This document shows positions 2,259 through 21,275 of a stretch of DNA of 29,033 nucleotides, piece after piece; within the stretch, counting starts at the first letter, position 1, and the number at the start of each line of letters is the position of its first letter. The stretch spans positions 1-29,033 of the IMG/VR virus record IMGVR_UViG_3300031965_000118; one strand, written 5' to 3'. The notes under the pieces are model-generated. The model worked only from the letters and a program-made list of their open reading frames with translations, made no database searches and was not told the origin of the DNA. The DNA comes from a virus. Lineage: Duplodnaviria > Caudoviricetes. A program made the position numbers and the translations under genes.

Positions 2259-2283
2259 AGGGAATTATATACAAAGTTACCCT
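2259..2283 (+). repeat. Inverted repeat, tnpB 3' side
   Basis: 25/25 match to the reverse complement of 3471-3495; contains the tnpB stop codon. Confidence 0.95.
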
Positions 2284-2400
2284 TGTGCATATCCGTGTTT
2301 CATAGACAACCGTTTCGTTCGCGCCGAAGCGCGAGCCAGAGCGTTCGTCTCCGCACCAAGCTGTTCCCCAGCTTGCTTGAGGATGTTTTTTGCCGCGTTC
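2260..2400 (-). ncRNA. Putative TnpB omegaRNA (reRNA) scaffold; 5' boundary approximate
   Basis: Overlaps the tnpB 3' end, as known for IS200/IS605 omegaRNAs. Minus-strand UCGCGC-UUCG-GCGCGA hairpin (2334-2319) and a GUAA-capped hairpin (2291-2266). Confidence 0.55.
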
Positions 2401-3434
2401 ACGTCCCTGTCATGTACCGCCTCACATCTCGGACACGTCCACTCTCTTGCGGAGAGCGGTAGGGACGGCATGACAAAGTAGCAAGATGAGCACATTTTGG
2501 AGCTGGGGAAAAACCGATCTATCTTGACCATCTTTCCGCCGTTCCATTCCTGCTTGTATCCGAATTGCCGGACGAGTTCTCCCCATCCGACATCGGCTAT
2601 TGAACGCGACAATCGCCTGTTTGCCATCATGTTCTTTACAGCCAAGTTCTCTAAAGCGATTATGGCGTGGTTCTTGCCGACAATCGCTTTTGAAACATGA
2701 TGCAAGCGGTTTTTCCTCTTGTTCGCGACCTTTAGGTGCAGACGCGCGAGAAGGATTTTTGCCTTCCTGCGGTTTGCGCCACCTTTCAATTTCCTTGAAA
2801 GATTCTTTGACGCCGAACGAATCCGCGCCAAAGAGCCGCCCAATGAACGTTCATTTTCGTGTTTCTCACCGTCAGATGTAACCGCAAGATGGTTCAATCC
2901 CATGTCAACACCAATACTGCCTTTCAAGCGCGGTGTTTTTCGTTTTTCTGTTGCTATCGTGGACGCCCACCAGTTACCGGCCGTATCTCTTGTCACCGTA
3001 AGCGTCCCCTCCCGTTTTGCTGGAAACGCACCACGGAAACGAACAGACACGCCATCCATGATGTTGACGTGGTTCCCGTTAATGCTCCAGCCCATAACCT
3101 TGCGCATTGATTGTTTGCCGTTCTTCTTGTGAAAGTTTGGAAAACGCGCTTGCTTTCTAAAGAAGCGATTATAGGCGACGTCAAGGCAACGGAGCGACTG
3201 CTGAAGCGGCTGGAATTGAACGCTCCGCATCCACTCGGTTTCGTGCCGGAGTTTTGTGAGTTCTTTGCTCATGGTGAGGTAAGTGATATTTTTCCCTGTT
3301 TCAAGATAGGTTGTTTTTTTCTTGTCGAGAAAGTAGTTATAGACGAACCGACACGCATCAATGTGCCGAAGTAGCACCTGTTTTTGCGAACAGCTAGGAT
3401 AGAGTTTTGCCCGGTAGCCACGAGTGATGGTCAT
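2277..3434 (-). CDS. tnpB: RNA-guided endonuclease TnpB (IS200/IS605 family)
   Basis: N-terminal HTH (YRAKLYP..Q...CRFVYN), RuvC-I GVDMG, RuvC-II ALENL, zinc ribbon CSSC/CPRC, RuvC-III HDRDVNAAKNI; catalytic residues intact. ATG 3434 preferred over TTG 3449. Confidence 0.95.
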   Translation of the reverse strand: MTITRGYRAKLYPSCSQKQVLLRHIDACRFVYNYFLDKKKTTYLETGKNITYLTMSKELTKLRHETEWMRSVQFQPLQQSLRCLDVAYNRFFRKQARFPNFHKKNGKQSMRKVMGWSINGNHVNIMDGVSVRFRGAFPAKREGTLTVTRDTAGNWWASTIATEKRKTPRLKGSIGVDMGLNHLAVTSDGEKHENERSLGGSLARIRSASKNLSRKLKGGANRRKAKILLARLHLKVANKRKNRLHHVSKAIVGKNHAIIALENLAVKNMMANRRLSRSIADVGWGELVRQFGYKQEWNGGKMVKIDRFFPSSKMCSSCYFVMPSLPLSAREWTCPRCEAVHDRDVNAAKNILKQAGEQLGAETNALARASARTKRLSMKHGYAQG

Positions 3435-3440
3435 GAATAC

Positions 3441-3469
3441 ATGATACAAAATCTATGTTTTTTTGTCAA
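3441..3469 (-). promoter_or_regulatory. Sigma70-type promoter for a probably leaderless tnpB mRNA
   Basis: TTGACA (3469-3464), 17 bp, TATCAT (3446-3441), 6 nt before ATG 3434. Confidence 0.7.
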
Positions 3470-3470
3470 T

Positions 3471-3495
3471 AGGGTAACTTTGTATATAATTCCCT
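3471..3495 (-). repeat. Inverted repeat, tnpB 5' side
   Basis: AGGGTAACTTTGTATATAATTCCCT, exact reverse complement of 2259-2283. Confidence 0.95.
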
Positions 3496-3522
3496 TTTTT
3501 TATTACATTGGGGACAGAGCAT
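3496..3522 (-). pseudogene. 5' stub of a small CxxC ORF (MLCPQCNKK) interrupted by the tnpB element
   Basis: ATG 3522 is coupled to the upstream stop (TAA-T-ATG); the reading frame meets the IR at 3495. Confidence 0.5.
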
Positions 3523-6247: not shown

Positions 6248-6344
6248 GACTTCAATAAAAAACCCAGAGAATGAGGCAGGTCAGCTGACTTATGGCTGTC
6301 GGACTTGCGCCCGATCCTCAATCTCTGGATTCTTTATTGAAGTC
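6248..6344 (-). ncRNA. Putative structured leader RNA upstream of the helicase
   Basis: 29-bp stem 6248-6276/6316-6344. Two of three mismatches are G-U wobbles only on the minus strand; it encloses a UCGGGC-GCAA-GUCCGA GNRA hairpin. Confidence 0.55.
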
Positions 6345-6372
6345 CTTTACCTGATAATTAAATTATATTTTA

Positions 6373-6401
6373 AGAATAATCCTCGGCGGGATTTTAGTCA
6401 A
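6373..6401 (-). promoter_or_regulatory. Leftward sigma70-type promoter
   Basis: TTGACT (6401-6396), 17 bp, TATTCT (6378-6373). Confidence 0.5.
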
Positions 6402-6410
6402 GTGGAAAAC

Positions 6411-6454
6411 TTCTAATATACTCCCGCGGCCTTAGCCGTGGGAGTATATTAGAA
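6411..6454. repeat. 20-bp palindrome/hairpin with one G-T mismatch
   Basis: TTCTAATATACTCCCGCGGC-ctta-GCCGTGGGAGTATATTAGAA. Confidence 0.85.
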
Positions 6455-6469
6455 TTACCAAAAATACCC

Positions 6470-6805
6470 TGTGGAAAACTCCCCAATAATGAGCAAAAAA
6501 AAGGCTGTGGATAAACTGTGGAATGCGGGTGCAGTAAGAAAAATACTGCACCCGTTTTTATACTACTTATTTTTACTATTGTCAATTATTATACAATAAA
6601 AATAATGGTTTGTAAAATCTTCGGGTGCAGTAAGCAGTATGGGTGCAGTATTTTACCTCTTTACTGCACCCAAATTTATCAATAAACACGGGGGGAAACA
6701 ACCACTTGGTGCAGTAAAACAGTAAAAAGTGAATTCCTCCTTTTTGTAGAAAAAAGGAAAGTGTATATATATAAAGAATTCACTTTTTACTGCTTTACTG
6801 CACCC
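6470..6805. promoter_or_regulatory. Putative replication origin: GGGTGCAGTA iterons in both orientations plus DnaA-box-like sites
   Basis: Iterons at 6527+, 6544-, 6623+, 6641+, 6662-, 6707+ (one mismatch), 6796-. 29-bp IR 6708-6736/6776-6804. TGTGGATAA 6506-6514 and TGTGGAAAA 6470-6478. AT-rich spacers. Confidence 0.65.
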
Positions 6806-9407: not shown

Positions 9408-9584
9408 ATGTCAAGCCACAAACATTATCATTGCGAGCATAAGAGTTTAATTCACTGCGTTTTAGGTAATATAGTTTATTGCACTGATTGCAAAGAGGAG
9501 TGGACAAAATATTATACCCCTTGTTGGGCTCCAGGTGGGAGTCCAAACGCTCCTTGGCATCCCACGAAGTGTTGTGGACATTAA
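9408..9584 (+). CDS. Small Cys/His-rich protein (58 aa, missed by ORF track)
   Basis: MSSHKHYHCEHKSLIHCVLGNIVYCTDCKEEWTKYYTPCWAPGGSPNAPWHPTKCCGH*; TAATG overlap with the next gene. Confidence 0.55.
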   Translation: MSSHKHYHCEHKSLIHCVLGNIVYCTDCKEEWTKYYTPCWAPGGSPNAPWHPTKCCGH

Positions 9585-10207
9585 TGAAAGAGGTTAAATT
9601 CTCTGAATTATGTCATCCAACAAGTAAGCAGGACGAGGCGTTTGTAGCTGTGAATGCTTATAAATATGTCCTTTATGGTGGAGCAATGGGGGGAGGAAAG
9701 AGTTTTTTCATCCGTTGGTGTTTATTAAAATTATTAAGGGAGTATTACCAAGCTGGTTTAACGGCTGATGAGAATGCTAAGGCTATAAAGGAGTTAAGCG
9801 GGGATGAAGAGTATCGGTATTCGGTAGCTGACCCGTCTATTTTTGCTAAGACGGGTCTGCCAGAGAGTATTGCTGATGTTCTAAGGCGTAACGGGATAGA
9901 TTGTTATCCCGGCAGTAATGACCGGATAGCTGGCTGGAATTTTGTCAGACAGTATTTAAGGACAGAGAAGTTAAAAATATTCACGACTTGTGTTAATACA
10001 ATCAGGACTATCCCTGAAATGCTGCACGATAGCTATAAGCCGGAGGATTTAGATACTAAGCTGGACGATCATGCGGCGGATTGTGCCAGGTATTTTTTAC
10101 AAACATTACGGGCGCGGAAAACTAAAGAACCTTTAACCGGGGCTAATCCCCCTACAACGGGGGGTACAATTTATCTAACGGAGAACTCAACTTGTGAACA
10201 TAATTAA
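9584..10207 (+). pseudogene. Second, internally deleted terminase large subunit (in-frame, 207 aa)
   Basis: N-terminal PTSKQ...VLYGGAMGGGKS Walker A joined directly to the nuclease C-terminal part (REYY...ADPSIF...NDRIAGW...DHAADCARY). Walker B and the first nuclease Asp are absent. Confidence 0.75.
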
Positions 10208-17631: not shown

Positions 17632-18897
17632 ATGTTATTAAAACGACAATCTAACATAAGCGATTTTAGAGGAATGCCGGTTGACGATAAAAGTTATTCC
17701 TCTTCAATCCAAACGATTAGTAGCGAAACCGTCCAATTATATTTCTGGGACAGTGGCACAAGGACATCGGATGCGGGAGAAGCCGCGGGAACAGTCGTGG
17801 AAGGCGTCTTAGCTTACGATAATATTAAAAACGAATCCGGGGCGATGCAGGGAACTGAATTAGATACCTCGCTGTCATTCACCTCAACTGCCTTAATAAC
17901 GGAAGTGCCGTTTCCTTATGATCGGGCGGAAGCAGTTGATGAAGCGGCTGGAACGAATAGGGCGACCGTGATAACTGGTGGATTTTCTAATGGTGATTAC
18001 TGCGTGGATTACAGTAAGGGGATTATTTACGGGAAGAAAACCTCAACCACAACGACATTAGCCAGCACGAGTTATAAGATTAAACAGGGTCAGACGGGTG
18101 GAACAAGCACACTAGCGGCCGATGTTAATCTTATAGAAGTTGGTGGCAACGCAGTCACGGCCGGAGCCGGCACCGTGGCGGCTGGCACGCCACGGATGAC
18201 TTTAGCCTCGGATGATCCGGCGGTAGTGGCGTTACAAATAATAGACGACTGGGATGAAACAAACAGAGCTGCCGTGAATCTAATTGCTAGTCAGGTAGCA
18301 ATTACTGGCGGAGCGGGAGCAGTAGCGGCTAATACGCCCAGAATGACTTTAGCCTCGGATGATCCGGCGGTAGTGGCGTTACAAATAATAGACGACTGGG
18401 ATGAAACGGATAGGGCGGCGGTTAATTTAATCGTCGGACAGGCCGGAATAGCTGCCGGCACGGGAATAGATGGCGTAACGGTGCCGAGAGTGAGTTTAGT
18501 GACTGACGTGGCATTACCAGCTGGGACGAATGCTTTGGGAACAGTCGGGCTGGATGCCACGACTGACGCCGTAGGGTTTGATACATTATTTGATGCTGAC
18601 GGCGATAATACGGCTCAAGCGGCAAAAGCGAATCCTGGGGTGTTATACGGCTTGAATGTTTATAATTCAAATACGGCTGACGCGTTTATTCAGTTATTTG
18701 ATCTGGCGATAGGCAGTATTACTGTTGGAACGACGGTGCCAAAACAGAGTTTCTTCGTGCCGGCGGCGGGATCGTATGATATACGATTTGACGTGCCGAT
18801 GGCGTTTGGGACAGAGATAAATTATGCCTGCACGACTACAGCAACAGGGAATGGGGACCCAATCGTGGGGTTGGCTGTAAACATTATGTATAAATAA
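17632..18897 (+). CDS. Virion structural protein with internal 49-aa repeat
   Basis: Thr/Ala/Gly-rich; PRMTLASDDPAVVALQIIDDWDET occurs twice; C-terminal beta domain. Confidence 0.65.
   Translation: MLLKRQSNISDFRGMPVDDKSYSSSIQTISSETVQLYFWDSGTRTSDAGEAAGTVVEGVLAYDNIKNESGAMQGTELDTSLSFTSTALITEVPFPYDRAEAVDEAAGTNRATVITGGFSNGDYCVDYSKGIIYGKKTSTTTTLASTSYKIKQGQTGGTSTLAADVNLIEVGGNAVTAGAGTVAAGTPRMTLASDDPAVVALQIIDDWDETNRAAVNLIASQVAITGGAGAVAANTPRMTLASDDPAVVALQIIDDWDETDRAAVNLIVGQAGIAAGTGIDGVTVPRVSLVTDVALPAGTNALGTVGLDATTDAVGFDTLFDADGDNTAQAAKANPGVLYGLNVYNSNTADAFIQLFDLAIGSITVGTTVPKQSFFVPAAGSYDIRFDVPMAFGTEINYACTTTATGNGDPIVGLAVNIMYK
18196..18407 (+). repeat. Direct repeat, 65 bp identical, period 147 bp
   Basis: 18196-18260 equals 18343-18407. 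Confidence 0.9.
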
Positions 18898-18941: not shown

Positions 18942-21275
18942 ATGCCTTACACAATACCCAGATTAAAGGTTCAGGAGGAAGACGGCGCGCCGGCAACATA
19001 TCCGGTTATCCTTAAGTTCCCGAACGGGACACTAACGGATAACGGTGACGGCTCAATCAGCCTGGCGACTGGCGCTGGAGGATTAAGTAATGTCGTTGAA
19101 GATACGACGCCACAGCTAGGCGGCGATCTTGACCTGAACGGATTCAATCTTGATTTTCCCACGACACCTAATATTAGTGATGTCATTGACGACGACACAA
19201 TGGCGACAGCGTCAGCGATAAAGCTGGCCACTTCGGAAAGCATCAAGGCGTATGTTGACGCGCAGATAGCGACAGTTAATACATTGGCTGAAATATTGGC
19301 AATTGGGAATCTCACGGGCGGAACAGATATACTCCATTATGACGCCGTAAATGACGGGAATCCTGAATTTAGAATTGGATCAAGTGATCTCGAAGAACTC
19401 CATGTTCAATCAGTTTTTGATCTTGGAGCGGCAACATTGAATTATGTTCTTTTCACCACGGATGTGGCGTCAGTCGCGGCCGATAAGGGATTATACAGAT
19501 TCAATGTTGATGGCGCGGATATTTTAGATATTGATGACGGCGGAATAAATTTAGCGGCCTCAATGGGCATCTCAATCGCCGGGACAGATATTATTACTGA
19601 CGCTATTGGGACAGCGACACTATCCAATATTGACGCGCTTGACGCGACAACGGAAGGAACAATTGAAGCGGCGATTGATACCTTGGCGAATTTAGTTAGC
19701 ATTCAGAGTTTAACAGTTACACTGGCCGATGCTGGAGCCAACGCTATCTTCGGCTGGGACGATGTCGCCGGAGCATACGAGAATTTAACACAGGCAGAGG
19801 TGCTGGCGATTATTGGAGATTCGTCAGACACAGCCAAAGGCGTCGTTGAACTGGCGACAACGGCTGAAACAGAAACAGGAACAGACGCCACGAGAGCCGT
19901 TACTCCAGACGGATTGCATGATATGACGACATTATTAGGCGCGGCATGGTTCTTAGATGAAGATACTATGGTATCCGATAGTGCTGTAAAAGTCGCTTCA
20001 CAGCAGAGTATTAAGGCGTATGTTGACGCGCAAGTTGCCGGAGCAGACACATTAGCGGAAGTATTAGCCAACGGTAACACCACTGGCGGGACAGATATAC
20101 TCCATTATGACGCTGTTAATGACGGCAATCCTGAATTTAGAATTGGATCAAGTGATCTCGAAGAACTCCATGTTCAATCAGTTTTTGATCTTGGAGCGGC
20201 AACATTGAATTATGTTCTTTTCACCACGGATGTGGCGTCAGTCGCGGCTGATAAGGGATTATACAGATTCAATGTTGATGGCGCGGATATTTTAGATATT
20301 GATGACGGCGGAATAAATTTAGCGGCCTCAATGGGCATCTCAATCGCCGGGACAGATATTATTACTGACGCTATTGGGACAGCGACACTATCCAATATTG
20401 ACGCGCTTGACGCGACAACGGAAGGAACAATTGAAGCGGCGATTGATACCTTGGCGAATTTAGTTAGCATTCAGAGTTTAACAGTTACACTGGCCGATGC
20501 TGGAGCCAACGCTATCTTCGGCTGGGACGATGTCGCCGGAGCATACGAGAATTTAACACAGGCAGAGGTGCTGGCGATTATTGGAGATTCGTCAGACACA
20601 GCCAAAGGCGTCGTTGAACTGGCGACAACGGCTGAAACAGAAACAGGAACAGACGCCACGAGAGCCGTTACTCCAGACGGATTGCATGATATGACGACAT
20701 TATTAGGCGCGGCATGGTTCTTAGATGAAGATACTATGGTATCCGATAGTGCTGTAAAAGTCGCTTCACAGCAGAGTATTAAGGCGTATGTTGATACGGA
20801 GGTTGCGGGGGTTGGAGGGGGGAATAAGACCATATTTTTACCTGCTCAATATACTAAGGCGGCACAAGAAAGCTTTGTCTTCGAACAGCCGTCTGTTAAT
20901 TTAGCGGATGGTGTAACTGAAAGGGCTGCGGCTAACTGGACGCTTCCTGACAATTTTACAAGCATTACTTCCGTTGAAGCTTATTGGACGACAGGAAGTG
21001 CAACTGGTCCTGCTGTATTTGAGTTTAAATCGAGAGCTGTAGCATCGGGAGAAAACCTTGGTGCGGGAGGAAGTGCGGACAGTATTGCTTCAACAACCTA
21101 TGCTAATGGCGGGACAAATCTCTTAAATATTATCAATGTAACTGCTATGTCTGACGGTTTAACATTGACTGCTGGTGACTTGGTAAGTTTTATGTGTATT
21201 CGTTCAGGGGGTGATGCCAGTGATGATATAAGTGGGGTTGTTTCTTTCCTTGGATTTAGAATAGTTTATAGCTAA
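18942..21275 (+). CDS. Phage fibre protein with tandemly duplicated 256-aa module
   Basis: DTTPQLGGDLD, three SIKAYVD motifs, two KGVVELATTAET..GTDATRAVTP tail-fibre repeats. Confidence 0.75.
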   Translation: MPYTIPRLKVQEEDGAPATYPVILKFPNGTLTDNGDGSISLATGAGGLSNVVEDTTPQLGGDLDLNGFNLDFPTTPNISDVIDDDTMATASAIKLATSESIKAYVDAQIATVNTLAEILAIGNLTGGTDILHYDAVNDGNPEFRIGSSDLEELHVQSVFDLGAATLNYVLFTTDVASVAADKGLYRFNVDGADILDIDDGGINLAASMGISIAGTDIITDAIGTATLSNIDALDATTEGTIEAAIDTLANLVSIQSLTVTLADAGANAIFGWDDVAGAYENLTQAEVLAIIGDSSDTAKGVVELATTAETETGTDATRAVTPDGLHDMTTLLGAAWFLDEDTMVSDSAVKVASQQSIKAYVDAQVAGADTLAEVLANGNTTGGTDILHYDAVNDGNPEFRIGSSDLEELHVQSVFDLGAATLNYVLFTTDVASVAADKGLYRFNVDGADILDIDDGGINLAASMGISIAGTDIITDAIGTATLSNIDALDATTEGTIEAAIDTLANLVSIQSLTVTLADAGANAIFGWDDVAGAYENLTQAEVLAIIGDSSDTAKGVVELATTAETETGTDATRAVTPDGLHDMTTLLGAAWFLDEDTMVSDSAVKVASQQSIKAYVDTEVAGVGGGNKTIFLPAQYTKAAQESFVFEQPSVNLADGVTERAAANWTLPDNFTSITSVEAYWTTGSATGPAVFEFKSRAVASGENLGAGGSADSIASTTYANGGTNLLNIINVTAMSDGLTLTAGDLVSFMCIRSGGDASDDISGVVSFLGFRIVYS
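19323..20794 (+). repeat. Near-identical tandem duplication, period 768 bp
   Basis: 19323-20026 vs 20091-20794; four synonymous differences found by eye. Confidence 0.95.

Follow-up and report, generated by a model that had tools for sequence, protein, structure and literature searches.

Positions 2260 to 3494 of the window, by which is meant the whole 29,033-bp stretch of DNA that was analysed, hold a 1235-bp cassette that is probably a tnpB-only unit inserted by an IS1595 transposase acting in trans, and whose TnpB is predicted to cut cassette-free sites in related phages. This reading draws on IS1595-type ends, an intact protein, the lack of a transposase of its own, covariation in a predicted guide RNA pseudoknot, and the presence of related cassettes at many different sites. 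A preliminary description of the same DNA had proposed a TIR-ended, non-autonomous tnpB element mobilised in trans, which is likely to be correct given the IS1595 ends, the missing transposase and a clade whose members often have paired repeats. The accompanying proposal that the system was undescribed had to be given up, since the ends are of the IS1595 family, and Altae-Tran et al. 2023 (PMC10691335) have already published both DDE-associated and solo TnpBs with inverted ends. The cassette is a transposase-less variant of a known arrangement, with IS1595-family ends and no new mechanism. What would be new is the phage-borne clade, the dinucleotide AT as a candidate TAM, and the observation that the target duplication and the left end are often missing.

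The cassette and its tnpB gene

The window carries a tailed-phage gene set (terminase, primase, exonuclease and tail genes), and the sequencing runs are from soil. An inverted-repeat search of the window returned 343 inverted pairs, including a perfect 25-nt pair at 2259-2283 and 3471-3495; of the 25 longest, no other has 100% identity. Comparison with IS1595 elements, the ends of which start at GG, indicates that the repeat proper is 24 bp (2260-2283 and 3471-3494); with GG ends the cassette measures 1235 bp, and the 25th pair is flank. The perfect pair of terminal repeats in the preliminary description is therefore retained, but at 24 rather than 25 bp. A single contig of run X1, possibly the source of the sequence, contains the entire window, and both copies are covered by short contig pieces in run X3, which is from a separate study. 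One of the X3 pieces matches 2259-2310 (the last 52 nt) exactly before passing into a flank that is absent from the window, so that a right end almost identical to this one must be present at a different junction.

The tnpB gene occupies 2277-3434 on the minus strand, with its ATG at 3434 and its stop codon, at 2277, inside the 2259-2283 repeat. The 385-aa product (PF12323, PF01385 and PF07282) has the HTH, OrfB_IS605 and TNB domains of TnpB/OMEGA proteins together with the RuvC D-E-D residues (D177, E262 and D344), plus two CxxC motifs and an intact C4 zinc finger. A sigma-70-like promoter sequence at 3441-3469 on the minus strand (-35 TTGACA, 17-nt spacing, -10 TATCAT; 11/12 matches) lies 7 nt before the ATG; three sites of such strength were found against 1.7 expected, and the tnpB site is a match to the consensus only. 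The gene can accordingly be described, as it was at the outset, as an intact tnpB between the inverted repeats, with catalytic residues present and a promoter-like site identified by consensus. A second promoter-like site (11/12), directed outward at 3463-3490 on the plus strand, overlaps the tnpB -35 box; it uses the TATAAT of the left repeat, and transcription from it would enter the upstream phage genes in antisense orientation.

Also as first described, the cassette appears to have no transposase. Scanning of 25 and 30 window ORFs for domain families revealed no transposase family other than TnpB, no IS1595 transposase match was obtained by tblastn against the window, and no zinc-ribbon/DDE transposase was matched in the window or in the loci of the TnpB clade considered below.

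Relationship of the ends to the IS1595 family

The IS1595 family comprises transposons with passenger genes as well as transposase-less derivatives. The left repeat of the cassette (IRL, 3471-3494, minus strand) is of this family's type, being identical at 21 of 24 positions to the IRL of the IS1595 element L179 and at 22 of 24 to the ends of L198 and L241. The right repeat (IRR, 2260-2283, plus strand) holds the tnpB stop codon and would, in addition, encode part of the predicted omegaRNA, namely a loop, a 3′ arm and one strand of the pseudoknot. Ends in other viral and bacterial contigs share 21-23 of 24 positions with the window repeat and, where partnered, bound elements with an IS1595 transposase or short, gene-poor derivatives. 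With regard to terminal repeats, then, the cassette conforms to IS1595, showing 21-22/24 identity to the ends of elements with a PF12762/PF12760-type transposase; no transposase, as an autonomous IS1595 element would have, lies inside the window ends.

The repeat was also sought in 401 genomes from the phylum to which G001 belongs, G001 being a Saccharibacteria-labelled genome with a member of the TnpB clade on its contig; two matches were obtained versus one for the reversed control. One of the two is directly upstream of an IS1595-family transposase, in a 2399-bp element that has both ends and a perfect 8-bp duplication, and whose left end is identical to that of the window at 21 of 24 positions. 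The three closest viral homologues of its transposase (61-74%) have the same repeat at 18-22/24, and 10 of 18 loci with related transposases have inverted ends and a duplication, which is of 8 bp in eight of them. The search covered the phylum of G001 and the viral collection, and the repeat may not be specific to that phylum. Scanning viral sequences for the repeat produced 24 stretches, of which 22 were examined, two being second views of the same element. A partner end was present in nine of the 22, six with transposase sequence and three as derivatives of 303-533 bp without transposase; a perfect 8-bp duplication flanks five of these nine, three have none and one is at a contig end. All nine lack tnpB. 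Taking together the non-tnpB elements with the window's type of repeat, a perfect 8-bp duplication was observed in seven of the 10 that could be checked, and the G774 element has identical ends and a perfect duplication. Passengers between IS1595-type ends include methylases and restriction-type genes. An element with both a transposase and a tnpB of the clade was not encountered among the elements examined, nor was a fused form, which is a weak test; the exact repeat had no match in viral contigs, and a degenerate right-end pattern had no match either. The profile of ends was built from ends chosen for their likeness to the window, such that the score of the window itself in that profile is circular.

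The left ends differ from cassette to cassette, that of L092 resembling L213, that of L103 resembling L201 and that of L097 resembling L179, while the ends of L083 and L125 resemble, by eye, a second subtype of IS1595 repeat, that of L184, L185, L187, L191 and L192. Four transposase-less elements of the window repeat family were also noted (L225, L232, L233 and L214; 303-567 bp), the first three with perfect 8-bp duplications and L233 with an apparent methylase-like small frame.

The identity of the ends bears directly on the suggestion that the cassette is invertible, or a substrate for a recombinase of Xer, lox-like or IS607 serine type. Perfect inverted repeats without a duplication would suit such a role, and IS607 elements likewise have imperfect subterminal repeats and no duplication in the portion of the literature that describes their ends (PMC6188088). 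However, DDE elements flanked by 8-bp duplications terminate in this repeat, no recombinase was found near the clade loci, the clade is separate from IS607-end TnpBs, and tnpB is co-oriented with most neighbouring ORFs. Nor was an inverted joint seen in the contigs of four runs, albeit a weak test, with X2-X4 too thin for joints. Inversion, for which no support emerged, is therefore considered highly improbable. The Xer/dif and lox-like readings, which started from a resemblance to such sites, were set aside on the IS1595 match. A cyanophage isomer case concerns a 30-kb inversion and is not applicable (10.64898/2026.02.14.705889).

The TnpB clade, its predicted guide RNA and its junctions

Related loci were collected by motif scans, which returned 8 viral, 52 metagenome and 13 genome stretches, with one further locus from a phage collection. 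Removal of duplicates, fragments and distant matches left 23 near-full-length loci with 43-100% identity, the window included. A locus search with the single protein yielded one distant locus, and a search with an alignment yielded 79 generic tnpB loci, which were kept as controls. In a quick IQ-TREE search (65 rows, no bootstrap) the 23 loci form one clade with an SH-aLRT value of 100, apart from IS607-end and IS605-end controls. Only one of the 401 genomes of the G001 phylum encodes a protein of the clade, and the neighbours of clade loci are mostly phage-type genes. No transposase or resolvase family was detected in 75 neighbouring ORFs scanned (109 listed) around clade loci, compared with Y1 in 11 and resolvase in two of 28 ORFs scanned (50 listed) around control tnpB genes. 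No flanking protein is common to the clade loci among the 28 compared, fragments included.

An inverted match between left and right flanks scoring at least 15 was present at 6 of 21 evaluable clade loci versus 2 of 70 control loci, both of the latter due to IS605 hairpins; among 1470 null pairs the highest score was 16. The six clade loci fall in four sub-branches. In the phylogenetic placement called for in the preliminary description, the clade is thus one that is often flanked by paired repeats. Recognisable left ends are present at 8 of the 23 loci and absent from 15. Controls mostly have a left hairpin in direct orientation, whereas the cassette has TIRs and no Y1 gene lies beside the clade loci, setting them apart from IS200/IS605 and IS1341; the lack of a neighbouring resolvase and the separate branch in the tree set them apart from IS607. 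Pairing between guide and cleavage site of IS605 type was scored in 29 of 45 controls, a figure that is blurred by the choice of pattern and carries no weight. In one IS605-type control (L063, 2708-2870) a whole inverted guide RNA end was noted some 290 nt upstream of tnpB, and differs from the cassette repeat.

The right end of the cassette appears to double as the end of a guide RNA. A predicted omegaRNA scaffold at 2259-2378 on the minus strand matches the clade profile from 2378 to 2259 (the window being part of that profile), has a fold z-score of -2.8, and has no match in Rfam. Its predicted terminal hairpin, with a GTAA loop, lies at 2261-2294 on the minus strand (-9.3 kcal/mol). The IRR spans the loop, 3′ arm and tail of this hairpin; the tail and a hairpin loop situated some 100 nt upstream have complementary sequences. 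That loop, at 2364-2369 on the minus strand, is predicted from covariation to form a pseudoknot with the last 5 nt of the IRR plus the first base of the flank (2259). At least four Watson-Crick pairs between loop and tail were obtained in 19 of 23 loci with their own partner versus 157 of 468 crossed pairs, where tails were chosen by eye and the counts ignore kinship. The covariation suggests that the predicted omegaRNA ends with this pseudoknot at the right end of the element. In 16 of 17 loci the flank begins with a T, which completes the pseudoknot pairing; the guide is therefore predicted to begin at the second flank base, which in the window would place it at 2241-2258 on the minus strand, in the right flank, its length being set by analogy with TnpB biology. 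The window contains no close second match to this guide, two matches having 3 mismatches in 16. A copy of a sister element that consists of the guide RNA alone, lacking both tnpB and a left end, was observed 625 nt downstream of the cassette in L099 (3907-4027), and possibly represents a second guide used in trans.

Given this overlap, the left repeat could be thought to act as RNA, either as an antisense block to guide RNA folding in read-through transcripts or as a second, split guide that reads into the left flank. The left copy lies just upstream of the -35 box and is complementary to the hairpin loop, 3′ arm and tail, forming a duplex of -38.5 kcal/mol against -9.3 kcal/mol for the hairpin, which it would outcompete. 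Nevertheless, identical repeat types bound IS1595 elements without tnpB, and the pairing is thus explained without any RNA function; the mismatches do not favour sense-strand G-U pairs (16 versus 14 over 10 cases), and transcripts from the outward-directed site at 3463-3490 would begin past the repeat. There is, in our estimation, only a slim chance that the repeat has such a function.

Examination of the left junctions revealed an A at -9 and a T at -8 from the left end in all 8 two-ended cassettes versus 4 of 35 control ends (p = 3e-6), an association that was noticed post hoc, with ends of non-tnpB elements carrying the window repeat as controls; TA at -8/-7 is present in 6 of the 8. In the window the AT lies at 3502-3503 on the minus strand. 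The T would be the first base of the 8-bp duplication, and in the empty site AT would therefore immediately precede the predicted protospacer on its 5′ side, making AT, from these flank statistics, a candidate TAM. The same AT precedes a 12-bp direct repeat at L087, which has no left end. At L087, L097 and L103 the right junction falls within the apparent ATG of a downstream frame (419, 188 and 61 codons, respectively, the last two being minima because those frames extend to the end of the sequence).

Probable loss of the duplication, and comparison with known systems

As the preliminary description had it, the cassette is without a flanking duplication: the window junctions match at 4 of 8 positions, rather than showing the 8-bp target duplication of IS1595. 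This is not the trace of a plain IS1595 insertion, and the cassette is therefore referred to as IS1595-derived as opposed to a typical member of the family. Duplications are absent from 6 of the 8 two-ended cassettes, L083 keeping 7/8 positions and L125 a 6-bp repeat. Cassettes of the window type (0 of 6) differ in this respect from non-tnpB elements (7 of 10; p = 0.011), with p = 0.025 or 0.15 when all 8 cassettes are counted, depending on L125. The duplication is likewise missing from 3 of the 5 transposase-bearing phage copies that could be checked. Since L083 and L125 retain part of it, the duplication seems to have been lost secondarily, the likeliest course being that the right copy went after insertion, either through deletion of adjacent DNA or through inter-phage recombination. 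The probable left copy of the original duplication lies at 3495-3502 on the minus strand, with no right copy.

At L087, tnpB is situated between a tape measure gene and a tail gene. Its 12-bp direct repeat abuts the -35 box and copies the start of the tail gene, and the guide would match the cassette's own promoter region over 11 nt, behind AT. This repeat, together with the presence of a left end at only 8 of 23 loci, indicates that some copies reached or kept their sites without a left end.

No empty allele was found in the run contigs, in related phages or among homologues of the flanking frame; the CHC2 zinc-finger gene led to no related phages, and hence to no empty allele by that route, and a search for homologues of the frame to the right of L099 returned that frame alone. 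The insertion point, the TAM and homing are for this reason all inferred. Removal of the cassette in silico, which keeps a reading frame in the window and in L099, was discarded as a sign of precise insertion, having a chance of about 1 in 3, having used the 25-bp ends and being without the support of a homologue.

These features would also fit a scheme in which the ends are IS1595 relics and copies now spread free of any transposase, as RNA-guided homing endonucleases, via TnpB cutting and phage recombination. The missing duplication in 6 of 8 two-ended cassettes, the 15 of 23 loci without a recognisable left end, the L087 repeat and the guide-RNA-only copy in L099, both of the latter without a left end, all point in that direction. 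Against this, both ends of the window cassette are perfect, the left ends of different cassettes match different IS1595 variants (L092/L213, L103/L201 and L097/L179), duplication-like repeats survive in L083 and L125, and transposase-bearing phage copies have lost the duplication as well (3 of 5 checkable). On balance the relic scheme appears unlikely. A shift in progress is offered tentatively, as less likely than not: the lineage may be moving from transposon cargo to free-standing RNA-guided homing endonuclease, with one-ended IS1595 transposition or right-end recombination deleting the duplication and writing a new guide, A|T junctions, in many cases the start codon of a phage gene, being selected for supplying both the TAM and the final pair of the pseudoknot, and the left end becoming dispensable. 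Re-programming of the guide would then be a normal step for these cassettes.

According to the preferred reading, insertion of a tnpB-only unit by IS1595 transposase in trans, an IS1595-type transposon, of a family rich in passenger genes here, would have captured tnpB, with its right end becoming the 3′ end of the guide RNA, and the transposase gene would then have been lost. Insertion would have generated an 8-bp duplication, and insertions at A|T would have been retained since the T finishes the pseudoknot pairing and AT acts as the TAM. Most cassettes would later have lost the right-hand copy of this duplication by adjacent deletion or phage recombination, altering the guide too, while TnpB would drive homing into cassette-free phages and the recognisable left end would have been lost at 15 of 23 loci. 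Homing against related phages, raised in the preliminary description, is retained here as the likely, inferred, task of TnpB.

The closest published counterparts are the DDE-associated TnpB branches DDE-1 to DDE-6, which have inverted terminal repeats and include solo TnpBs between the same ends; solo tnpB is thought to be mobilised in trans, and the tnpB 3′ end is near the transposon end, all as set out in parts of Altae-Tran et al. 2023 (PMC10691335). The cassette shares the inverted terminal repeats and the position of the tnpB 3′ end, and probably also the trans mobilisation of solo tnpB. The supplement to that paper notes that in DDE-5 the predicted end is preceded, 8 bp upstream, by a TA motif, reminiscent of the AT at -9/-8 in the cassette clade. 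IS1595 goes unnamed in its main text and appears once in a list of profiles in the supplement, and loss of the duplication or the left end does not feature in its relevant passages (PMC10691335). The clade may already be contained in Table S1 or Additional files 10-11 of Altae-Tran et al. 2023. No paper pairing IS1595 with TnpB was found by title or by the start of its abstract.

IS1595 transposons with passengers and their transposase-less derivatives (examples being L179, L217, L220, L241, L225, L232 and L233) have in common with the cassette the 24-bp repeat family, the GG start and passenger genes; the cassette differs in that its passenger is an RNA-guided nuclease with a scaffold formed from the right end, and in its lack of an 8-bp duplication. 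IS200/IS605 and IS1341 elements resemble it in TnpB fold, catalytic residues, a guide RNA over the 3′ end of the gene and a guide from the right flank, but have a TCA-N right end and a pair of hairpins in direct orientation, where the cassette has TIRs and a clade without Y1. The statement in the preliminary description that IS607 tnpB elements lack TIRs needs to be qualified, since it overlooked the imperfect subterminal inverted repeat attributed to IS607 elements in the corresponding part of PMC6188088. Fanzor proteins on eukaryotic TIR transposons, as presented in part of PMC3627910, are similarly TnpB-type nucleases captured by an unrelated cut-and-paste transposon; the cassette, unlike these, is prokaryotic and phage-borne, and its capture of tnpB was presumably independent. 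Free-standing phage homing endonucleases, as treated in part of PMC13565253, are also lone nuclease genes amid phage genes with predicted cutting of related phages, whereas the cassette is RNA-guided and has discrete transposon ends.

The phage-borne clade joins the few known cases of a prokaryotic RNA-guided nuclease on a DDE transposon, as a bacterial parallel of the Fanzor capture. A two-letter AT TAM, if real, would give a 385-aa nuclease a wide targeting range. Loss of the duplication (6 of 8) bears on two matters, how a guide that starts in the duplicated target is kept from matching the left junction of its own cassette, and how new guides are acquired by nucleases of this sort.

Elsewhere in the window, two inverted-repeat pairs of equal geometry (29-nt arms, 39 nt apart) were noted at 6248-6344 and 6708-6804, with several short GGTGCAGTA-type repeats from 6528 to 6804, upstream of a D5-like primase gene; the repeats at 6248-6804 are possibly a replication origin. 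A second, shorter ORF resembling the terminase large subunit (239 aa; 9488-10207) comes after the full-length terminase of 512 aa and an ORF of 100 aa, and looks like an internally deleted second copy. Finally, the tail-fibre-like genes contain a tandem 147-nt repeat and repeats spaced by 768 nt (18151-18444 and 19239-20833).
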